This document shows positions 21,859 through 43,965 of a stretch of 64,000 nucleotides of DNA, one piece after another. Within the stretch, counting starts at the first letter, position 1. The number at the start of each line of letters is the position of its first letter. The stretch lies in contig JBBQZR010000028.1 of NCBI GenBank assembly GCA_038207515.1, forward strand, positions 2,308 to 66,307, given 5' to 3'. The notes beneath the pieces are model-generated. The model saw nothing but the letters and a program-made list of their open reading frames with translations, had not been told where the DNA came from and did no database searches. This DNA comes from Lysobacterales bacterium (GTDB taxonomy: Bacteria > Pseudomonadota > Gammaproteobacteria > Xanthomonadales > Rhodanobacteraceae). Position numbers and translations under genes: made by a program.

Positions 21859-23598
21859 ATGAAACGCTTCCGCACCGCGGCCAGCCTGGCCGCGCTGGTC
21901 CTGCCCTGCCTCTTTTCCACAGGCGCCACGGCACAGATCAAAGGCGCCAACTGGCTGCGCACCGATCACACCTACAGCAACGTGCCATCGACGGACCCGC
22001 GCCGCGTCGGCTGGAACCTCGAATTCGCGCGCGACGTGCCGTCCATGAGCAGCTGGTCGGCCAACTACAACACGCTGTGGAGTCAGTACGGCATCCGCAC
22101 CCTATTCCGCATCGGCTACGACGCCAAGCCGACGGCGGCGGAAAAAGCGCTGCTCAATGCGGCCACCTTCACCAACTGCAGCGGCATCAACGGCCTGATG
22201 AGCGCACTGGATGCCGAGGCCGCCAACGCGAACAATGCCAACGCCGCCGCAGTCGGCGGCTACCTGCTCGGCAACGAGCCGAATCTGGCCGCGGAATGGG
22301 GCATCGGCGGCCGCGCCTACGGGCGCATCTACCAGTGCTACATCACCCGCTGGAATGCCGGCGCGCTGGGCGCGCGCAACCTGTTCGCGTCCGGCCCGGG
22401 CGGGTGCTTCGACGGCACCTGTCCGACCTTCTACTCCGAGATGTTCGGCGCCATGGGCACGACCGTCGACGGATTCGCTATCCATGCCTACGGCCAGACC
22501 GATACCGCGTTCGACGGTGATTTCCGCTGGCAGCTCAGCGCGATCAACAGCGCGAGCAACGCCAACGTGCGCAACAAGCCGGTCTACATCACCGAATTCA
22601 ACGCCGGCGCCAGCGAAAACAACCCCCTGCCGGTCGCGCCGAGCGCTGCCTATTTCAACGGCGTGATGAGCAAGGTGCGCGATTTCAACGCCGCCAACGG
22701 CGGCCAGATCAAGGCGGTGATGTACTTCGTCGACTCGCCGTCGCCATGGATACGCGGTGGCCAGCAGTGCCACCCCGCCGTGGCGCCGTCGCAGGACGGA
22801 TGGTGGAGAAGTTCACTGTGCTACAGCGGAACCTGGCGCCAGTACTGGCTGGATTCGCAGCCGTCGATCGTGCTGCCGGCGCGCAACGCGAGTGTGAGCT
22901 ATTCGGGCATTCCGTCGTTCATGATGCCGGGCGAAATCCGCCGCTTCACCGCGACCGTCACCAACACCGGCGCGGAGACCTGGACCGGGTCCGGCTCGGC
23001 CAACTGGTATCGCTTCGGCGCGGTCGGCGCCAACGGCTTCATGTTCTCGGCGTTCACCGGCTGCGGCGGCTACGGCAACAGCGTGCTGGATGCGCGCGTC
23101 TATACCTGCGGCAACGTGGGCAACAACGCGACGACGACGTATCCGGTCGATGCGCGCGCACCGACGTCGGGTTCCAATGCGACCTTCCAGGGCCGCATGG
23201 TACGCGACGGCATCGAGTGGTTCGGCAATTCGCCACAGCAGTCGGTGGCCTTGGGCCAGGCCTACTGCGGTACGGCGCTGACCCAGTGCATACTCGGTGC
23301 GCGCAGTGACATCCTGCCGTTCTTCCAAGGCAACGGCTGGAACACCGCCTGCTGGAACCGCGACGCGATTGTCGCCAACTGGTGCGGCCTGGATGCGGCC
23401 GGATGCAACGCACTGCGCAACGGCATCTGCGCGACGTACAACAACAGCTGCCGCTGCTCCGGCGGCACCCACCTGGGCGGCGCCGCCATCGACCCCAACG
23501 GCACTTACTGCGGCTACCAGGTCTGCGGCACCAACCGCCAGATCTACAGCTGCAGTACGGGGAACAGCTGGACGGCTACGGGGCGTGGTTGCAACTGA
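21859..23598 (+). CDS. Secreted clan GH-A-like glycoside hydrolase + NBR1-like Ig domain + Cys-rich C-terminal module
   Basis: Signal peptide; LLGNEPN (acid/base) and VYITEFN (nucleophile); PGE..RFTATVTNTGAETW Ig-like domain; 12 Cys in the last ~110 aa. Confidence 0.75.
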   Translation: MKRFRTAASLAALVLPCLFSTGATAQIKGANWLRTDHTYSNVPSTDPRRVGWNLEFARDVPSMSSWSANYNTLWSQYGIRTLFRIGYDAKPTAAEKALLNAATFTNCSGINGLMSALDAEAANANNANAAAVGGYLLGNEPNLAAEWGIGGRAYGRIYQCYITRWNAGALGARNLFASGPGGCFDGTCPTFYSEMFGAMGTTVDGFAIHAYGQTDTAFDGDFRWQLSAINSASNANVRNKPVYITEFNAGASENNPLPVAPSAAYFNGVMSKVRDFNAANGGQIKAVMYFVDSPSPWIRGGQQCHPAVAPSQDGWWRSSLCYSGTWRQYWLDSQPSIVLPARNASVSYSGIPSFMMPGEIRRFTATVTNTGAETWTGSGSANWYRFGAVGANGFMFSAFTGCGGYGNSVLDARVYTCGNVGNNATTTYPVDARAPTSGSNATFQGRMVRDGIEWFGNSPQQSVALGQAYCGTALTQCILGARSDILPFFQGNGWNTACWNRDAIVANWCGLDAAGCNALRNGICATYNNSCRCSGGTHLGGAAIDPNGTYCGYQVCGTNRQIYSCSTGNSWTATGRGCN

Positions 23599-23640
23599 GT
23601 GCGCGCCTGATCAGGGCTGCTGGCTAATGCGATGAGCAAC

Positions 23641-23670
23641 CGTCGCCTTCCCCTGACCGGGAAGGCGACG
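23641..23670 (+). terminator. Probable terminator hairpin
   Basis: CGTCGCCTTCCC-CTGACC-GGGAAGGCGACG, 12-bp stem downstream of the GH gene; weak U-tract. Confidence 0.6.
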
Positions 23671-23749
23671 TCGTTTCGGGCGATCGCGCGCCGGCTAGCA
23701 ACGCACGCAAACAAGCTTGGGAGCCTGAGCCGCCGTGCGGAATGCCTGA

Positions 23750-24066
23750 TTTTCAGTCATCGATGGATGAATTTCAGTCAACGATGGGTTCGGCGAAGTC
23801 ACCGTTGAGTAGCAGCTTGCCCAACCCGGAGTGACAGGCAGTCACCGATGATTGCTGGCCCCCCGGCGATGGGTGCGCCGCGGTGACCGGCGCGTTCGAA
23901 GAAATCACCGTTGAGTAGGAATTACCCTACGACAAGTAGCGAGGCAGTCATCGCTCGCTGCTGACCAACCGACGATGGCTGCGCCGCAGTCAGCGGAGAC
24001 TTCCGGCCAGTCAGGCGTCACTGAAAATCAACCGAAGCTGGCTAACGCAGAGTCGCCGCTACGCAA
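23750..24066. repeat. Degenerate ~21-bp-period tandem array (about 15 units) with a 106-bp higher-order duplication
   Basis: Core (C/A)AGTCAnCG(A/T)TG or variants at 23754, 23775, 23796, 23839, 23860, 23881, 23902, 23945, 23966, 23987, 24008, 24029; 23792-23897 resembles 23898-24003. Confidence 0.8.
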
Positions 24067-24158
24067 GCGAGGACAGTAACGGCGACATCAGCCAGAACGA
24101 AAAGCGGCACCTGGAAAAACGCCGGAGCGGCGCACGGCCGCCCCGGCAGCGAGGCGAT

Positions 24159-24437
24159 CTACAGGCGCGCCTCGATATGCGCCTCCATCAGCCCAAGCAC
24201 ATCGCGCGACAGGATCGCGACCGCTTCGAGAATGCCGCTGTGCGAATCGGAGTCCGGCGATTCCAGCTTCGCCGTCGCCACCGTCTCGCTGAGCAGCTGG
24301 ATCGCCGAGAGGCGGCACATCACCTCATACTGCCACGCCTCGCGCTGCGCGCGCGTATCAACGAGAAACGCAAACATCACGGGATCCGCCGACGGAACGT
24401 CGCGGCGCATGGGGTAGAACGAACCGTGAGGAGTCAT
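24159..24437 (-). CDS. Small hypothetical protein (92 aa) downstream of c4-like RNA
   Basis: MTPHGSFYP...ILEAVAILSRDVLGLMEAHIEARL; GGAGG RBS; ATGA overlap with the upstream 32-aa ORF. Confidence 0.6.
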   Translation of the reverse strand: MTPHGSFYPMRRDVPSADPVMFAFLVDTRAQREAWQYEVMCRLSAIQLLSETVATAKLESPDSDSHSGILEAVAILSRDVLGLMEAHIEARL

Positions 24438-24532
24438 GGCGCGCGCCTCCCAGTCCCGGGAACAACGCGACCGATACCAACGAAGCAACCCGACGAACGC
24501 CGGTTGCCAAAGCACACAGACCGAATATCCAT
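24434..24532 (-). CDS. 32-aa leader ORF translationally coupled to the 92-aa ORF
   Basis: AAGGGAG RBS, then MDIRSVCFGNRRSSGCFVGIGRVVPGTGRRAP*; its stop overlaps the next ATG. Confidence 0.45.
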   Translation of the reverse strand: MDIRSVCFGNRRSSGCFVGIGRVVPGTGRRAP

Positions 24533-24578
24533 GGACAACTCCCTTTGCGTGGAGTCGCCACCCCGAATAGTGGAAAAA

Positions 24579-24654
24579 GGGTGGCGAACGGTGTGCGGGT
24601 TGGCAGACCGGTGCAGGACCGGCGAGCCTTGCGGCTCCCCACGCACCGTCCGCC
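24579..24654 (-). ncRNA. c4-antisense-like structured RNA (phage P1 c4 / P4 CI type)
   Basis: Outer stem GGCGGACGGUG/CACCGUUCGCC enclosing GAGCC-GCAA-GGCUC and CCGGU-CCUGC-ACCGG hairpins plus single-stranded CUGCCAACCCG; matches the c4 architecture as I recall it. Confidence 0.65.
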
Positions 24655-24690
24655 AGAAATCGACAGATCACGCCGCACGAATTTCGGGCG

Positions 24691-24720
24691 TAAAAAAACG
24701 CCGTCTTTCGGTGCGGCGCT
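24691..24720 (-). terminator. Intrinsic terminator/attenuator upstream of the c4-like RNA
   Basis: CGCCG-CACCGAAAGA-CGGCG followed by TTTTTTT on the minus strand. Confidence 0.7.
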
Positions 24721-24733
24721 GTGCGCCTGCATT

Positions 24734-24769
24734 CGGGCTGCCAAGCCCGGTTGCCGAATTGGCGGCAAC
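24734..24769 (-). promoter_or_regulatory. a1/b1-like antisense target hairpins
   Basis: GUUGCC(G)-loop-(C)GGCAAC then CGGGC-UUGGCA-GCCCG; CGGGCUUGGCAG is complementary to CUGCCAACCCG of the c4-like RNA with one bulge. Confidence 0.6.
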
Positions 24770-24775
24770 GGTCGG

Positions 24776-24804
24776 ATTGTTTACCTCGATGCGGGCGGCG
24801 TCAA
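24776..24804 (-). promoter_or_regulatory. Sigma70-type promoter driving the c4-like locus
   Basis: -35 TTGACG (24804-24799), 17-bp spacer, -10 AACAAT (24781-24776), directly upstream of the target hairpins. Confidence 0.6.
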
Positions 24805-25182
24805 GGGTGTGGATTTGTCCCCTACGCGTGCGCCCGCATTTCTCTGTGCGCACTGCTCTACCCGACACGAGATGAGGGACTTCCAACAATTTCGCTGTCG
24901 ATCGCTCCCCGCACCACTAACCAATGGCGCTGGCAATCGCGCCTCAAGGTGAGAGGTTACTCCGTGTCGAGGCAGAGCATGAACCCATCACCTCGCTGGC
25001 GACTTCGCAAAACCAACAGTCCGCTTTTGTGCGTCGCGTCAACCCGAATACACAAACGTGAACAGACCTACCGCCTTCGTCGCAAACAAATTTGCCGCCA
25101 AGTATTGATTTACACGCACACCTTGCGACTACACTCAGACCACCATCAGCGTCACGCGGGCCGCCAACCAGCCCGCAATCAC

Positions 25183-25560
25183 ATGGCAGGGGGCCATATC
25201 GGACGTAGGACCAGCTTCCTTGGCGCCATGGCCAAGGCACTTGCGCGTTCCGTGCGAGAAGCGGAAGCCCAGCGCCGGGCCCGATCCGCCGACCAGATAC
25301 GACGGGAGCGTTTGCCGGCGGCAGAAGCGCGCACAGAGCGGCAGAGATCAGGGCTGCCGATGTCAGGGCGAGAGCCTATGCACTGCATCAGATCGCGCTG
25401 CAAAGCAATCGGAACGCGACCAAGGCAGGGGCAAAAGAGGCCAAACGCGAGGCCCACGAAGATGCTGCCGACGCCGCAGAGCGGCGCACGAAGGAGGTCG
25501 CCGATGAAGTCGACGATCTGAGGAACCTCCTGCCATATACGCTTTCGTCGACGATTGAAT
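25183..25560 (+). pseudogene. Frameshifted, truncated coiled-coil N-terminus resembling that of some restriction endonuclease-domain proteins
   Basis: MAGGHIGRRTSFLGAMAKALARSVREAEAQRRAR..., then in another frame RAADVRARAY...EAKREAHEDAA...EVADEVDDLRNLL..TL. No catalytic domain remains; the family call is from recall only. Confidence 0.3.
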
Positions 25561-25822
25561 CTGCTTCGGCGACGTTCTTATCAATAAGTCAGTGCTGGCC
25601 TCGGCGCTCCGTCGCTGAAAATGTCGACTTACTACGCACTGCGAAAAATTGTCATTCCGACGCCGCCCGCGCTCCTGCAGTCCTACATCGAGGCAATCCG
25701 TGCGCACACTTGCTGGAGAACTGTTAGGCGCAAGCGCAATCACAGAGAGAGGAAGGAACCAAGCTCCGCACGCAACTTAATCCGACGCTGTTAGTTGGGC
25801 CACATTTTCAAACTCGCCACAG

Positions 25823-27283
25823 ATGGAGCAGTCAGTGGATCACGCTGAGATAAACACAATTCGTACTCAGTATCAGGGAGGTCTCTGGCCGCAATTTCTC
25901 CAAATGGCAAAGATTGAGGGGCTTCGCGGCTGGACTGGTCAGTCGGTTGAGTTCAACTTTCCGGTCGTTGCGCTAGTCGGTGAAAACGGAAGCGGAAAGA
26001 GCACTTTAATGAAAGCTGCTGCTTGCGCCTACGACAACAAGGACAAAGATAAACGATTTTATCCCTCATCGTTCTTTGTGGATACGCACTGGGATACCAT
26101 TGAGAAGGTAACCATCGAGTTCCGCATCAAGCGTGGTACAAACGTCGACACCTATCGTATTACTAAGCCTACTAAACGTTGGCGCGTTCCGCAGAATGCA
26201 CCTAAAAGAGATGTCTATCTTCTGGACATCGCGCGAACTTTACCGCTTGATGCCTCCGCAGGGTACGCCAAGATCGCACGATCCGCCGCCGCGGAAGTCG
26301 AAAGCTCGGAGATTGACGACACGTTCCGCGAGAGGCTATCTCATGTACTGGGGCGGAAGTACAGAAAAGCCCGCTTTGCTACATCTGATGTAGACAAAAA
26401 AAGAATGGTGGGCGTACTAGAGCGAGAATGGGGAGAGCTTTCGCAGTTTCACCAGGGCGCCGGCGAGGACGCAACACTCGATTTGTTTCGCACTCTTCAA
26501 GGTCTCCCCAACCACTCTCTTCTGTTGGTCGACGAAGTGGAGGCCTCATTGCATCCGCGTGCTCAGCGGAGGCTCGTGCGATTCCTACTTTGGCTCGCGC
26601 GGCAACGACGAATACAAGTCATCCTCTCTACACATAGCCCATTCGTCTTGGAGGAACTTCCTCAAGAGGCCCGCATTCTCCTTTTGCCAGGACCGCAAGG
26701 GTTAAGCGTTGTTTACGGAATTTCTGCTGATTTTGCGATGAGCAGATTAGATGATGAGGTACACCCTGAGGTCCATGTATTTGTAGAAGATAGAGACGCA
26801 GAAATTTTGCTTCGTGAGATTCTTGCATCCTCTGAAGAAACAAGCCCGCTTCTCAGTCGTATTGCAATCAGTCCAGTGGGGCCAGTTAACGTCGTTTCTA
26901 TGCTCGGAGAACTAGGAAGAAACGGCAAGCTTCCCTATAAATCCATAGCTGTGCTGGACGGCGACTATAAGCACAACGACTGCCTGAATCTTCCGGGAAA
27001 CATAGCCCCTGAGAGAATGGTTTACGCCGATCTTATGGCTGCTGGCTGGCCAAACCTGCCGCAGCGCTTTGGGATTGGTGCAGGTACATTACTCACGGCG
27101 CTGGAAGACGCGATGCTGGAACCTGATCACCATCGGTGGAATGCATTGGTTGGCGACCAGGTTCACAAAAGCTCCGTCAGCGTTTGGGAAGTGCTCGCCA
27201 ATGAGTGGTGCCGATCCTGCCTTGAACTAGCCGACAGGAAAGCAATCGGCGACGCGATCATTGCAGTCGCAAATCCTGTCTAA
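25823..27283 (+). CDS. OLD-like ABC (AAA_21-type) ATPase with C-terminal TOPRIM domain; candidate anti-phage protein
   Basis: Walker A GENGSGKST, Walker B/D-loop LLLVDEVEASLHP, H-loop STHS; TOPRIM VFVED...LDGD; visibly more AT-rich than the flanks. Confidence 0.8.
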   Translation: MEQSVDHAEINTIRTQYQGGLWPQFLQMAKIEGLRGWTGQSVEFNFPVVALVGENGSGKSTLMKAAACAYDNKDKDKRFYPSSFFVDTHWDTIEKVTIEFRIKRGTNVDTYRITKPTKRWRVPQNAPKRDVYLLDIARTLPLDASAGYAKIARSAAAEVESSEIDDTFRERLSHVLGRKYRKARFATSDVDKKRMVGVLEREWGELSQFHQGAGEDATLDLFRTLQGLPNHSLLLVDEVEASLHPRAQRRLVRFLLWLARQRRIQVILSTHSPFVLEELPQEARILLLPGPQGLSVVYGISADFAMSRLDDEVHPEVHVFVEDRDAEILLREILASSEETSPLLSRIAISPVGPVNVVSMLGELGRNGKLPYKSIAVLDGDYKHNDCLNLPGNIAPERMVYADLMAAGWPNLPQRFGIGAGTLLTALEDAMLEPDHHRWNALVGDQVHKSSVSVWEVLANEWCRSCLELADRKAIGDAIIAVANPV

Positions 27284-27396: not shown

Positions 27397-28566
27397 CTAC
27401 CCTTTACTTGAACCGCCAAAGGCGAAGAATAATTCACTGAATTGTTCTTCGGCTATGTTCGCGGGATTCTCGCCCGGAAAGCGAATGTGTTCTGGCCAGA
27501 CGATCTCACTAGCTTCGAAAGGACCAGCGAACTTTGGGCCCTGCATCCTCAAGTATGTGTAGTCCGCACCTGTATACAAGCAGGTCATCAGAAACGGGAG
27601 TTCAGATTGGCTATGATGAAGGCACTCACGAATCACATGGGCGAAAACAAAGAACACATCTTTGTGCCGCGCCGAAACGATGGTCCGCTCCAAGCCTACG
27701 CCGATGTTAGCCTGTACCTTCTCGCGCTCGTGATTGGCAACTACTAGGGATAGGTGGCCATTTTGAGAAATGTCCAATTGCCAGTCCCCTCCATTGGCAC
27801 GCCATCCATCGATCGTAGGTCGTCCGGACGACGCCTTGAGGTCACAGAATTTGAATTCTCCTACTCGGTCGTACCCTCGCCACACTCTATCAAAGGCCGT
27901 TGATCGGACTTCCCAAGGACGCGGCAAACCGGTTAGTGGCACGGCCTGCAACAAGAAATAGGCGCCGGCACGGCGCGAGGCATTCCAAGCTATTCTGTCG
28001 CGGGCTAGTTGGCGAGCTTTACCCTCAGCGGTAGCCGACGACAATACCGATTCACGAATTTCATGGGTGTCCATTTCGGTCGTGGACTCTGAGTGTCGAA
28101 TATGAAACCCGCGGTAACCTTGAGAAACCACCATGTGAGGCTTCGTAAAGCTCGAGGGGACATACACGATGAGAAAGCAACGTTCGTCTGCGAATTCTAG
28201 AAGTTTGAATCGTAGACCACTGATCTGCGGATCAAGACCTGAGGCGGCAATTTGTTCTACCTGACGAGCAATTTTCTCGTCGACCTTCGTGCCTACCATA
28301 CGTTCTTCTGGTGTCAGCGAAGCTTTCGGTTCCAGAGCACCGAAAACAAGCATTCCCCCCACGGCGTTAGCAAAGCCGCTTATATCCTTGAGAAGCTCCT
28401 TTTTTCCAGCATCGTTCAGGGGTTTCATGTGGAGTTTGTAGTCTAAGTAGACTCCCTCTGGAACTCCTAAGGCCATGAACTCGCGGAAAGTTTCCTCTGT
28501 CAGAAGGCCGACCTCGTTTGACGTTAAATGCATGAAGAGATCCGGAGTAGTTAAGTTAAAAGCCAT
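27397..28566 (-). CDS. Schlafen/AlbA_2-domain protein with uncharacterised C-terminal region; candidate anti-phage protein
   Basis: EGVYLDYK...LLKDISGFANAVGGMLVFG...IVYVP.S..KPHMV....F..R is AlbA_2-like; AT-rich codon usage. Confidence 0.8.
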   Translation of the reverse strand: MAFNLTTPDLFMHLTSNEVGLLTEETFREFMALGVPEGVYLDYKLHMKPLNDAGKKELLKDISGFANAVGGMLVFGALEPKASLTPEERMVGTKVDEKIARQVEQIAASGLDPQISGLRFKLLEFADERCFLIVYVPSSFTKPHMVVSQGYRGFHIRHSESTTEMDTHEIRESVLSSATAEGKARQLARDRIAWNASRRAGAYFLLQAVPLTGLPRPWEVRSTAFDRVWRGYDRVGEFKFCDLKASSGRPTIDGWRANGGDWQLDISQNGHLSLVVANHEREKVQANIGVGLERTIVSARHKDVFFVFAHVIRECLHHSQSELPFLMTCLYTGADYTYLRMQGPKFAGPFEASEIVWPEHIRFPGENPANIAEEQFSELFFAFGGSSKG

Positions 28567-28648: not shown

Positions 28649-28726
28649 GAGGTCAGGTTCACTTTCTACACGATGCCCGAGGCAACAGAAAGCAGCCAGC
28701 AATGCGGTCAGGTTAACTTCTAGAAC
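28649..28726. repeat. Two direct copies of a GGTCAGGTT(C/A)ACTT REP-like motif
   Basis: 28649-28665 GAGGTCAGGTTCACTTT and 28704-28720 GCGGTCAGGTTAACTTC; 28706-28726 is 20/21 identical to 43865-43885. Confidence 0.65.
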
Positions 28727-30232
28727 TTTTTTCGGCGATAGCATGGCCGCCGAAAAGCGTGAAAACCGGCCGCCCCACCAGCGCATTCGCGAAACACTGA
28801 TTCCCACCTCACCACACCCGCCACCCGCTCCGCCGCCGCCACAAACAACGTCGCCTCACCCCCTACCCCAAACGCCTCATACCAAGCCTGCAGATTGCGC
28901 ACCGCGCCATTGACACGGTAGTTGGCCGGTGAGTGGTAGCCCGAATCGATCTCGGCGCGCAGCGCCGCTTCAGTCGTCTGCGTTCGCCACAGTTGCGCCC
29001 AGGCTAGGAAGAAGCGCTGTTCACCGCTGAAGCCGTCGCGCTTGGCCTTGATGTCTATACCGTTCGCCGCGGCGTGCAGGCGGTAGGCGTCCAGCGCGAT
29101 GGTCACGCCGACGAGGTCGGACAGGTTTTCGCCGAGGCTGCGGCGGCCGTCGAGGTGCGCGCCGGGTAGAGGCGCGAAGGCGGAATACTGCGCGACCAGC
29201 ACGTCGGCCTTGGCATCGAACGCGGCGCGTGCGGCGGTCGACCACCCGTCGCGCAGGTTGCCTTTGTCGTCGAAGCGCGAGCCCTCGTCGTCGAAGCCGT
29301 GCGCCATCTCGTGGCCGCGCACCGCGTCGGTCGCGGATTGCCGTATCGGTGTTCAGCACCACCGCGTCGACGGCCGGATAGCCGCTGGCGGCAACGAACT
29401 CGCGCCACGGAAAACCCGGCGCGTAGCGCAGCAGTTCGTCGAAGGACATCGGGTGATAGTTCAGCCGTCTGTCGCGCAACTGCTGCGGCTTCCACTGCAG
29501 CGCGGCGAGTTTGCCTTCCAGCGCAAGGATGGCGGCGGCGCGCGCAGCGCCGTCGGCGATGCCGGCGCGGGCCAGAGTCTGCGCGATGTAGGCCGCATAG
29601 GCGGTCCGCTGAGGCGCGTATTGCTCGCTCGCGGTGTCGTAGTAGCGCGCGTCCGGCAGGCCGACGATGCGCTTGCCGGCGGCCTGCTGGTCGAGGTGCA
29701 GCCGGCTGCGGCGTGTGTCGCCGGCATCGAGGAAGACGTAGCGCGCGGCAATGGTGTTGGAGAGCGGATGCGCCATCCGCTGCGCGACCTGGACGTGCGT
29801 CGTGATCGCGAGAATCGCATCCAGGTCGGCACGGACCGGCGCAAGGCCGGCCTTGTCGATCGCGTCCAGATCGACGTAGCTGCGATAGAGATCAGATAGC
29901 CTGCTTTTGCCCGCGCCCTGCCCCGCCGCATCGTGGACGATCGCGCGGATGCGCGCTTCGGTGCGCAGGAACATGGCATTCATTTCGCCGTATTGCGCAT
30001 AGCCCGCCGGCCGCGCGGTATCGTGCAGCCAGCCCGCATTGACGAATTCGTAGAAATCGTCGCCGGGCTTGACCGTGGCACTGAGGTGGGCCAGGTCGAC
30101 GCCCCAGCCGCCCGCCGACGGTTTTTCCAGCGCCAGCGCGCGACGCGTGGCAACGGCAAGCGGCAACAGCGCGAGGCCTGCGCACAGGCGCCGCTGGGCG
30201 CGATTGCAGTCCGGCGATTGGGGAACGGTCAT
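28720..30232 (-). pseudogene. M13 (neprilysin-like) metallopeptidase with internal deletion and frameshift
   Basis: N-half (PGDDFYEFVNAGWL, GLPDARYY) breaks at NTDTAIR near 29335 and resumes out of frame at GHEMAHGFDD...GENLSD...HSPANYRVNG; the middle part of the protein is missing. Confidence 0.85.
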
Positions 30233-30611
30233 GGGCACACTCCTGCGGATGGCCTCGGCAACCGCTCGCGCGCACCGTAGCCGGTGAATGCGAACGAACA
30301 CGCGGCGGCGTCGGTGGACGGGGCGAGTAGAGCCGGGATGCCGTGCGGCGACGAAGGGCCGCGGCGCACGATTGCGGCAGCTACGCGCGTCGCTTCACGC
30401 CAATCGCGCTTCGGACGGACCGAACGCCCCCCAAAGGCAAACCTGACTCCGTAAGCCGTTTTTCTCCGCATTCCGAGGCCCAGCGTGGAGCCCGCTTCGC
30501 CAGAGCCCGTTTGCCGCGGAGTTCGTCGGCTTGCGCCGCGTTAAATTTGCAGACGGGATTTGCGCATTGGCCGAGCCATGCGACGGGACCGCCCGCGCTG
30601 GTATCGACCAC

Positions 30612-43862: not shown

Positions 43863-43965
43863 GGGGTCAGGTTAACTTCCAGAACGCTCTGTTCAGCGGC
43901 ACGTGGTTACCGCCAGCGACGTTCCATTGACACCGTTCGCGCCACTCCACAGTGAACCTGACCCC
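43863..43965. repeat. Inverted pair of GGGGTCAGGTT(A/C)ACT REP-like motifs
   Basis: GGGGTCAGGTTAACT 43863-43877 and AGTGAACCTGACCCC 43951-43965 (one mismatch). Confidence 0.7.

Follow-up and report, generated by a model that had tools for sequence, protein, structure and literature searches.

A C4/IsrK-type antisense-RNA cassette ahead of a gene for a 92-residue protein in a non-phage islet of a Lysobacterales genome

Elements of the cassette

The window, i.e. the whole stretch of Lysobacterales DNA that was analysed (64,000 nucleotides, 64 kb), carries on its minus strand what is, as judged from its sequence, a complete and intact C4/IsrK antisense-RNA cassette. A single promoter precedes the whole unit, which comprises an IsrK-like leader, a C4 RNA, a hairpin hiding the ribosome-binding site (RBS), a 32-codon open reading frame (ORF) and a 92-amino-acid (aa) ORF coupled to it by an ATGA overlap. 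The C4/IsrK family takes in the c4 RNA of phages P1 and P7, the CI RNA of satellite P4 and IsrK of Salmonella Gifsy-1. Rfam covariance models, run on the window at their gathering thresholds, returned only three matches, c4-a1b1, isrK and C4, all at this locus and in the canonical order. The arrangement lies far beyond chance, since ten copies of the whole unit are present in the genome searched, the assembly to which the window belongs (6.2 Mb, 126 contigs, 94% complete). An earlier note, written from the letters of the window, had described a P1/P4-like layout here. That layout is correct overall, every element it named is present on the minus strand, either exactly where placed or a few bases away, and the covariance-model search it proposed was positive for C4 and c4-a1b1, and for isrK as well.

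A promoter scan of positions 23500-26000 found one site, a sigma-70-type promoter (TTGACG-17-AACAAT) at 24776-24804 on the minus strand, as are all cassette elements described below. Both hexamers are conserved among the paralogues. Directly upstream of the -35 hexamer lies a conserved box, GGGGACAAATCC (24811-24822), which forms the 5' edge of the repeated cassette, is shared by the majority of the ten own copies as well as by copies from relatives, and may be an operator for some regulator or an UP-like element. The leader was matched by c4-a1b1 (RF03163; 24730-24782; 50.5 bits, cut-off 46.7) and, marginally, by isrK (RF01394; 24694-24769; 50.8 bits, cut-off 50). It has the arrangement by which members of these families are recognised: two hairpins, the second of which exposes a C4 target, and a terminator hairpin, all upstream of C4.

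For the analysis of pairing and folding, the elements were parsed in 30 distinct cassettes, drawn from the own genome and its congeners. The first leader hairpin, a1 (GUUGCCG-CCAAUU-CGGCAAC, 24750-24769), was located from the Rfam c4-a1b1 and isrK alignments; it is conserved and has no complementarity to C4 in this cassette family. The second, b1 (24734-24749), presents the loop UUGGCAG (24744-24738), which is the target of the C4 segment b' and is identical to the consensus of the phage-derived c4-a1b1 model. Just 3' of b1 follows the hypervariable 'a' site UGCAGG (24726-24731), complementary to the loop CCUGCA of C4 hairpin 2. The last two G of this site are the first two bases of hairpin H3 (GGCGC-ACA-GCGCC, 24715-24727), a predicted antiterminator. 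The intrinsic terminator T1 (CGCCG...CGGCG and U7, 24692-24718, with U7 at 24698-24692) corresponds to the third hairpin of the Rfam isrK model and, by that model, to the 3' end of an IsrK-like short RNA.

The C4 antisense RNA (24577-24660) was matched by RF01695 with 65.3 bits (cut-off 45; E = 2e-10 for the 64-kb window), the alignment covering model positions 1-87 and the gathering score being reached over the full model. A multi-stem RNA of 76 nt had been proposed at this place; a C4-type RNA is indeed located there, with a length of 84 nt. It takes the family fold at -50 kcal/mol (z = -5.8 against shuffles), and in a 36-copy alignment double changes were seen in 5 of the 18 consensus pairs of its helices, for instance G-C to C-G in 12 copies. 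Of its recognition segments, a' (CCUGCA, 24617-24612) lies in the hairpin-2 loop and b' (CUGCCAA, 24606-24600) is part of the unpaired CUGCCAA(CCCG) at 24606-24596.

Downstream of C4, the segment GGGGUGGCGA (24555-24564) is complementary to the C4 3' strand CGCCACCC, a complementarity that covaries in a second cassette subfamily described below (GGUGACGG with CCGUCACC). GGGGUGGCGA is possibly a processing determinant. The Shine-Dalgarno (SD) sequence GGGAG (24543-24539) is sequestered in a conserved local hairpin (24536-24556) by the anti-SD sequence GACUCC (24556-24551), and the unpaired probability of the SD in this GACUCC...GGGAGU hairpin was 0.04 or lower in all 23 cassettes modelled. A re-pairing of GGGUGGCG/GGGGUGGCGA with the C4 3' strand was considered as a switch freeing the SD and rejected: when the C4 5' strand was blocked, the SD was still paired in every model. 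Of the re-pairing postulated in the earlier note, the complementarity to the C4 3' end is thus real, whereas the RBS is not freed in the folding models. No complement of the SD region was seen within C4 on inspection of the sequence.

The leader ORF (24434-24532) starts 44 nt downstream of C4, and its stop codon overlaps the start codon of the 92-aa ORF (ORF92) in an ATGA motif, which bears out the coupling predicted for the two frames. Its length is 32 codons in 24 of 26 cassettes, and its peptide, which had no match in Pfam, PHROGs or NCBIfam, is not conserved, with an almost neutral ratio of non-synonymous to synonymous substitution rates (dN/dS) of 0.86-0.92. Given the conserved length and the near-neutral peptide, the leader ORF fits a role through its translation rather than its product. 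ORF92 itself (24159-24437) is under purifying selection (dN/dS about 0.36) and belongs to a small, lineage-restricted family. Searches of Pfam, PHROGs and NCBIfam gave no significant match and a PDB profile search nothing meaningful, and a profile search of 1.84 billion representatives recovered only 41 clusters, all of short unnamed proteins; the homologues named stem from metagenome-assembled genomes of Rhodanobacteraceae. A helical hairpin is predicted for the protein: the AlphaFold2 model, based on a 20-sequence alignment, combines a disordered N-terminus with two long helices (residues 29-59 and 63-91; predicted local distance difference test score, pLDDT, 73), and Foldseek comparison of this model with PDB and BFVD gave only generic coiled-coil or helical-hairpin matches (E above 0.7). 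By analogy to icd, kil and anrP, which lie behind C4-type RNAs, ORF92 could plausibly be a small regulatory or growth-affecting effector. The cassette ends with a terminator-like GC hairpin followed by T5 (24115-24148), the hairpin being conserved in all copies.

Paralogous cassettes and covarying pairings

A search of the own assembly with RF01695 yielded ten matches above the cut-off. The locus had previously been regarded as an orphan copy, a description at odds with these ten paralogous cassettes and with a genus-wide expansion. All ten own copies share the promoter, both hairpins, the U-tract terminator, C4, a GGGUGGCGA box, the RBS, a leader ORF, its ATGA overlap with a downstream ORF of 91-92 aa and the final GC hairpin; the leader ORF has 28 codons in a single copy and 32 in the other nine. 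Pairwise BLAST comparison of 24-kb neighbourhoods confined the homology (74-85% identity) to about -165 to +545 from the C4 start, giving a cassette of ~710 bp whose +545 limit is marked by the terminal GC hairpin. A larger mobile element or shared flanks around the ten copies were rejected as an explanation, given that DNA homology ends at the cassette edges and that the flanking proteins have almost nothing in common. Contigs C21 and C56 carry tandem units in the order cargo, cassette, cargo, cassette. Three or four additional ORF92 copies without recognisable C4 were found by tblastn (on C20, C26 and, as a second one, on C56). The copy on C20 has lost the leader and C4 and is cut off inside the leader ORF, and that on C56 is an orphan ORF92. 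About 140 nt after the truncated ORF92 copy of C20, a weak match to the group II intron model D1-D4-6 was noted (L076, 3708-3844; 30.7 bits, below the gathering score of 49).

Among 40 relatives searched, C4 was found in 12, mostly of the same genus, with 1-19 copies per genome (0-19 in congeners). A second cassette subfamily with the same RNA design is characterised by the closing stem GUGACGG/CCGUCAC and the b1 loop AUUGGCA. It is represented by 19 copies in the complete genome G007 (loci L020, L047, L050, L059, L062, L065 and L068 among them) and by locus L055 in G006 (C9:18366-18447). Its members gate a leader ORF of 42-64 aa and an unrelated protein of ~108 aa, and one of its cassettes lies directly before a gene for a RadC-like JAB protein. 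Homology between ORF92 and the ~108-aa cargo was rejected on the basis of an hhalign probability of 0.1%.

Two pairings between the leader and C4 covary across the 30 cassettes. In pair b, formed by the loop heptamer of b1 and the single-stranded b', the variants UUGGCAG, UUAGCAG, UUGGCGA, CUGGCAG, UUAGCGG and UUUGCAG were each accompanied by their own complement; the UUGGCAG/CUGCCAA pairing proposed in the earlier note was thus right, and it covaries across paralogues. That note had missed pair a, which joins the loop of C4 hairpin 2 to the stretch just 3' of b1, is hypervariable in both sequence and length, and overlaps the terminator switch. The majority of the 30 a-loops differ from one another, and each of them is matched by its target. 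The duplex energy was -8.8 kcal/mol for cognate versus -3.3 kcal/mol for non-cognate combinations in pair a, and -14.0 versus -11.2 kcal/mol in pair b. For both pairs the observed mean lay beyond all 10,000 permutations (p<=1e-4), a value that overstates independence because the cassettes are related. The a/b combination was different in all ten own copies and, on inspection, likewise in the nine G008 and eight G006 cassettes parsed. When the 110 nt after C4 were searched in the 30 cassettes for P1-type a2/b2 sites, no cognate-specific complementarity comparable to the upstream pairs was detected (b, p = 0.56; a, -7.3 versus -6.9 kcal/mol, p = 0.04).

Predicted terminator switch and competing readings

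The 3' arm of H3 is at the same time the 5' arm of T1, so that the two hairpins are mutually exclusive, and the a-duplex always covers the first 2-5 nt of H3. In the minimum free energy (MFE) structures of the free leader, the shared arm was found in H3 for 24 of the 30 cassettes, predicting read-through. Blocking the nucleotides of the cognate a-duplex shifted the fold to T1, and hence to predicted termination, in 29 of 30, blocking b alone had little effect, and blocking both gave T1 in all 30. The T1 pairs are canonical in 149 of 150 cells, and both H3 and T1 are canonical across the cassettes; the few compensatory changes comprise GACGC/GCGTC, with CGACG or a G-U wobble.

The most economical reading of these thermodynamic models is an attenuation driven by the antisense RNA. 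C4 would be released from read-through transcripts and would then bind the nascent leader of its own cassette, initially by kissing at b and subsequently by invasion at a. Pairing at the 'a' site would take at least the first two bases of H3 and free the shared arm, upon which T1 could form and transcription would stop before C4 and the ORFs. Attenuation of this kind, with negative feedback, would leave ORF92 nearly silent, and the hidden RBS together with the required translation of the leader ORF would provide a second lock. The cassette may serve as a portable, self-insulated RNA gate ahead of a small effector, in a horizontally acquired non-phage islet with defence-type genes. We hold it to be fairly probable that this intact C4/IsrK cassette acts by C4-driven attenuation with negative feedback and gates ORF92 in such an islet. 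P4 CI RNA is thought to act, in principle, by antisense-driven premature termination, and plasmid countertranscripts do likewise. The same idea of C4-driven termination was raised for the C4-like RNA STnc1160 in the IsrK paper and left untested there (PMC4825925).

Several points weigh against this interpretation. Between four and six of the 30 free leaders were already in T1 or in neither structure, and H3 and T1 are mostly invariant, so that covariation lends the alternative helices thin support. The attenuation model is one of equilibrium MFE folding and not of co-transcriptional kinetics. C4 is located downstream of the terminator that it is proposed to promote, making its supply dependent on leakage. 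Moreover, in Gifsy-1, the only homologous system studied at the bench, the effect demonstrated is translational activation by the short IsrK RNA, and C4-driven termination was put forward as a suggestion (PMC4825925). Finally, the a1 hairpin, GGGGUGGCGA and the GGGGACAAATCC box are given no role in the model.

Among the closest described systems is the isrK-orf45-anrP locus of Gifsy-1, in which a short terminated RNA is accompanied by a processed RNA of ~80 nt and by an upstream ORF that overlaps the next one at AUGA (Hershko-Shalev et al. 2016, PMC4825925). There, short IsrK activates orf45-anrP translation through the AUGA coupling (PMC4825925). By sequence layout, the present locus shares with it the single promoter, an intrinsic terminator that is partly read through there and presumably also here, and a downstream RNA of ~80 nt complementary to the short RNA. 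Both are island-encoded, the upstream-ORF peptide is conserved in neither, its stop codon overlaps the next start (AUGA), and the evolutionary pattern of orf45 and anrP is that of the leader ORF and ORF92. Differences lie in the position of the leader ORF (44 nt downstream of C4, overlapping in Gifsy-1), in the cargo (an unrelated 92-aa protein instead of the AnrP antirepressor), in the context (a lambdoid prophage in Gifsy-1, no prophage here) and in the presence of ten distinct copies. An isrK-C4 tandem in a GC-rich, non-enteric proteobacterium is also known from Burkholderia cenocepacia J2315, where ncS23/ncS24, an isrK RNA (81 nt, with terminator) followed by a C4 RNA (90 nt), form a single transcription unit according to differential RNA sequencing (dRNA-seq), only one copy being reported there (PMC4603805).

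The P1/P7 immI operon (c4 - icd - ant) resembles the present cassette in the C4 fold with two exposed recognition segments, in upstream a1/b1-type sites and in a small ORF coupled to the next gene, and the specificity differences between relatives resemble P1/P7 heteroimmunity. It differs in that the present locus has neither a2/b2 sites at the RBS nor an icd or ant homologue, lies in neither a phage nor a plasmid, and has its second target in the linker 3' of b1, where it overlaps the antiterminator. The C4 RNA of P1/P7 is excised from its precursor by RNase P. P4 immunity involves the CI RNA with seqA, which lies upstream of cI, and seqC; the termination sites are situated downstream of cI, and the second target, seqC, follows cI. 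As proposed here, the RNA would, as in P4, be processed from the transcript under its control, pair with the nascent transcript to cause premature termination and thereby regulate itself. In contrast to P4, the covarying targets and the terminator are all upstream of C4, and alpha, epsilon, int, sid and psu are missing. In pT181, pIP501 and pAMbeta1, replication genes are controlled by countertranscripts from the opposite leader strand. The proposed flip from antiterminator to intrinsic terminator by an antisense RNA on the nascent leader is the same, whereas the RNA is here cis-encoded downstream on the same strand and belongs to the C4 family. Type I toxin-antitoxin systems combine a small toxic peptide, as a rule hydrophobic, with a cognate antisense RNA that represses it. 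In the cassettes, cognate-specific RNA pairing is present, and the proteins are not hydrophobic.

Among the other readings, an IsrK-type logic as the principal mode of control is rather unlikely but compatible with attenuation. A short terminated leader RNA would act in trans on the read-through transcript, remodelling the mRNA for translation of the leader ORF and ORF92, or on free C4 by sponging it, with C4 chiefly as target or partner and less as a repressor that induces termination. The isrK model scores above its gathering threshold, the strongly sequestered SD would need an activator, leader and C4 are complementary at two sites, and the short IsrK of Gifsy-1 does activate orf45-anrP (PMC4825925). 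On the other hand, the leader ORF does not overlap C4 but begins 44 nt beyond it, the SD hairpin is local and, in the models, indifferent to occupancy of the C4 5' strand, and inspection revealed no complementarity between the leader and the anti-SD arm. Somewhat less probable, and unlikely in our view, is an addiction module resembling a toxin-antitoxin system, in which ORF92 would arrest growth like P1 Icd or P4 Kil, with the unstable C4 as its cognate antitoxin. Such a module would confer stability on the neighbouring defence islet, and its many copies would stay independent of one another through their diversified a/b segments. In the multi-copy type I families Ibs/Sib, each RNA represses only its cognate. 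The likeness to these families, the mutually distinct RNA specificities of the multi-copy cassettes, the purifying selection on ORF92, the mobile, defence-rich islets and the toxicity of the first small proteins of known c4/CI operons (icd, kil) all speak for such a module. ORF92, however, is a soluble, charged helical hairpin similar to no toxin, and C4 is co-transcribed with and upstream of its target gene, so that loss of the DNA would remove both.

The earlier note had proposed a sensor switch, held off by its own C4, in which an incoming phage or satellite transcript would titrate C4 and release ORF92 as an abortive-infection effector, or alternatively superinfection immunity, which would be directed at elements of the same specificity. 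Defence genes do adjoin the cassette, UUGGCAG is the c4-a1b1 consensus, and the C4 core shares 80% identity with its counterpart in lambdoid Shiga toxin (Stx) phages. As worded, this idea is nevertheless unlikely, given that a foreign C4 adds repressor and does not titrate. Titration would require a foreign leader matching both a and b, a is hypervariable and unique to each copy, and no matching phage or plasmid leader was found; ten mutually distinct copies fit insulation between paralogues better than sensing, and we regard the sensor as very improbable. Still less credit is due to two further explanations, both of which are disfavoured. In the canonical P1/P7 mechanism, C4 blocks translation of the first ORF via a2/b2 at the RBS (Citron and Schuster 1990, as cited in PMC2864571). 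Applied to the present locus, with Rho-dependent polarity on ORF92, this mechanism of the founding member (PMC2864571) would suit the layout of leader ORF and coupled ORF, yet it is hard to reconcile with the lack of cognate-specific complementarity in the 110 nt after C4 in 30 cassettes and of an SD-region complement in C4. A decaying immunity remnant of a prophage or satellite, without present function, would explain why no integrase, replication or virion genes are located nearby and why truncated copies exist elsewhere (C20, C56). It is scarcely to be expected, however, that ten complete copies of a remnant would keep every element and maintain the pairings by covariation, that ORF92 would have a dN/dS of 0.36 and that the same design would be expanded in congeners.

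The RNA parts of the cassette are textbook phage elements, and the locus is not a new kind of system. Its distinguishing traits are targets confined to the upstream side, where they overlap a predicted attenuator, a cargo that belongs to a new family, diversification into many mutually distinct copies, and a setting among defence islets without phage. Three of these aspects (the distinct multi-copy set, the hypervariable pairing over the attenuator and the adjacency of defence genes) were not found described in the open-access literature searched. The hypervariable pairing over the antiterminator and terminator offers a concrete, testable attenuation mechanism for the upstream (a1/b1-side) C4 targets, which have long been unexplained. 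In addition, ten cassettes (up to nineteen in congeners) with diversified recognition segments constitute a natural set of candidate orthogonal RNA regulators.

Islet context, defence genes and repeats

Between 24 and 30 kb of the window, the GC content falls from ~0.67-0.70 to 0.51-0.61. The islet (~23.7-28.7 kb, ~5 kb, low GC) consists of a repeat array, the cassette, ~1 kb without a convincing gene, a gene for an AAA ATPase and one for a Schlafen/AlbA_2 protein, with no other content, and is flanked by ordinary genes with a high GC content at third codon positions (GC3). The low-GC ATPase gene (25823-27283, plus strand) is divergent from the cassette and encodes an ABC/OLD-type protein (Pfam AAA_21 and AAA_15) that is matched over its full length by HEC-04 (5.6e-63), a candidate defence family of PADLOC. 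The product of the Schlafen/AlbA_2 gene (27397-28566, minus strand; Pfam SLFN_AlbA_2, 2.8e-8) had no PADLOC match. No phage, integrase or tRNA genes were found around the islet, and neither phage genes nor P4-type genes (integrase, alpha primase, epsilon, sid/psu) were present within +-10 kb. In that range, the absence of a phage had been stated correctly in the earlier note, as had the defence-like character of the neighbourhood. A phage or plasmid origin of the cassette was rejected, given that only the 83-nt C4 core matches phages (80% identity to C4 of lambdoid Stx phages) and no other part of it has a counterpart in phages or plasmids. At the islet ends, no direct or inverted terminal repeats longer than 8 bp were found. 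In an empty-site comparison, orthologues of the left-flank glycosyl hydrolase were identified in three congeners; synteny is lost at the stop codon of this gene, and the comparison yielded no empty site.

Known or candidate defence genes were also found on the promoter side of other cassettes. In the own genome they comprise type I restriction-modification genes (HsdS/HsdR), PD-Lambda-1 (3e-112), PDC-M02A/B and HEC-03A/B (1e-127). In G008 and G006 they include DRT UG5-nitrilase (2e-118), Pycsar PycC (2e-217), a type IIG restriction-modification enzyme, a SAVED-HNH-type nuclease, an NsnA-like protein, PDC-S59, PDC-S60 and PDC-M36A. A PADLOC or restriction-modification match was obtained among the one or two nearest promoter-side genes of 13 of 25 evaluable cassettes and for none of ten control genes, which were ordinary genes of the window evaluated at the same threshold (p ~0.004, hand-calculated hypergeometric term). 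Two metagenomic homologues have one large divergent gene upstream, encoding an AAA_15/AAA_21 ATPase in one of them.

About half of the cassettes thus abut known or candidate anti-phage systems (HEC-03/04, PD-Lambda-1, DRT UG5-nitrilase, Pycsar, type I and type IIG restriction-modification). This makes the uncharacterised genes next to the remaining cassettes candidates for new defence genes, and ORF92 may be an effector or a regulator of such islets. On C9, C53 and C8, low-GC3 genes of 497, 243, 342 and 219 aa lie on the promoter side of the cassettes (L010:5059-7646, L016:8373-9398 and L015:5722-6378). None of the four had a Pfam or NCBIfam match, and the 497-, 243- and 342-aa genes had no PADLOC match; by their position, they are candidates for undescribed defence genes. 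Tentatively, C4/IsrK cassettes may be more than devices of phage immunity and, in this Rhodanobacteraceae genus, may be viewed as an expanded set of 10-19 portable RNA locks per genome, each insulated by an a/b code of its own, that gate small effectors and form a backbone for the maintenance, control or mobility of non-phage defence islets, with ORF92 as a new host- or phage-directed effector. This is a possibility that we consider somewhat doubtful. The gated effector would be ORF92, the unrelated ~108-aa protein or RadC, and the cassette would be the single conserved component that these small defence islets, unrelated in all else, have in common, their defence cargo lying directly on its promoter side. 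If this were true, C4 cassettes could act as a genomic beacon for defence islets outside Enterobacterales.

An iteron-like array with periods of 21 bp and 106 bp and a unit of about CATCGATGACTGAAAATCA (23740-24030) adjoins the cassette. The 21-bp repeat reported by Tandem Repeats Finder (23747-23787, 2 copies) is the best-preserved end of this degenerate array (~23740-24030). With up to 4 mismatches allowed, CATCGATGACTGAAAATCA had 20 matches in the genome, 16 of them in four clusters: at the present locus, at the cassette on C92 (~0.7 kb downstream of C4, as here) and at two C4-less loci on C27 (56802-56980) and C5 (53310-53555; L074 and L075). The arrays of the latter two adjoin genes for RadC-like JAB proteins at boundaries between high and low GC3, and one of them additionally adjoins genes for an HTH_3 (XRE) regulator, a C-5 DNA methylase and a PRTase-CE protein. 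In another congener, an array fragment was found near C4 cassettes, on the opposite side of the cassette. The array had been counted as part of the unit; it accompanies only 2 of the 10 cassettes and is also present at the two C4-less loci, so that a part in the RNA switch was rejected. It is a separate element, probably a group of sites at which a single DNA-binding protein binds along islet borders.

The variable islets are furthermore punctuated by imperfect palindromes of ~50-60 nt or their half-sites, (A)ACGGGGTCAGGTTAACTT...GTTAACCTGACCCCGTT, which are found in the window at 28649-28720 and 43863-43965 and in the own genome on C8, C9, C20, C21, C26, C44, C88, C92 and C101. Two half-sites form the right border of the present islet. 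On C101 there are three, spaced 1.4-2.6 kb apart, and another coincides exactly with the point at which the C20 cassette is truncated on its 5' side. The family is attC- or REP-like in appearance. An interpretation of the GGTCAGGTTAAC palindromes as an integron attC array was rejected: no integron integrase is present, the best match to TIGR02249 reaching 75 bits (cut-off 265) and the matches looking XerC/D-type, and the cores deviate from RYYYAAC/GTTRRRY.

No convincing ORF is present in the stretch of ~1 kb that separates the cassette promoter from the gene for the ATPase (24805-25822). A segment of ~570 bp (24705-25275) is 73% identical to an inverted stretch located 3.3-3.8 kb upstream of the C9 cassette, which carries a second promoter-like copy, GGGCAGATCC...CTTGACGCC. 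The homologous segment is probably non-coding, since the similarity crosses frames with stops. To the right of the islet, an M13 peptidase gene (28720-30301, minus strand) is split into an N-terminal ORF (29021-30301) and a C-terminal ORF (28720-29322) in overlapping frames, and represents either a frameshift pseudogene or an error of the draft assembly.

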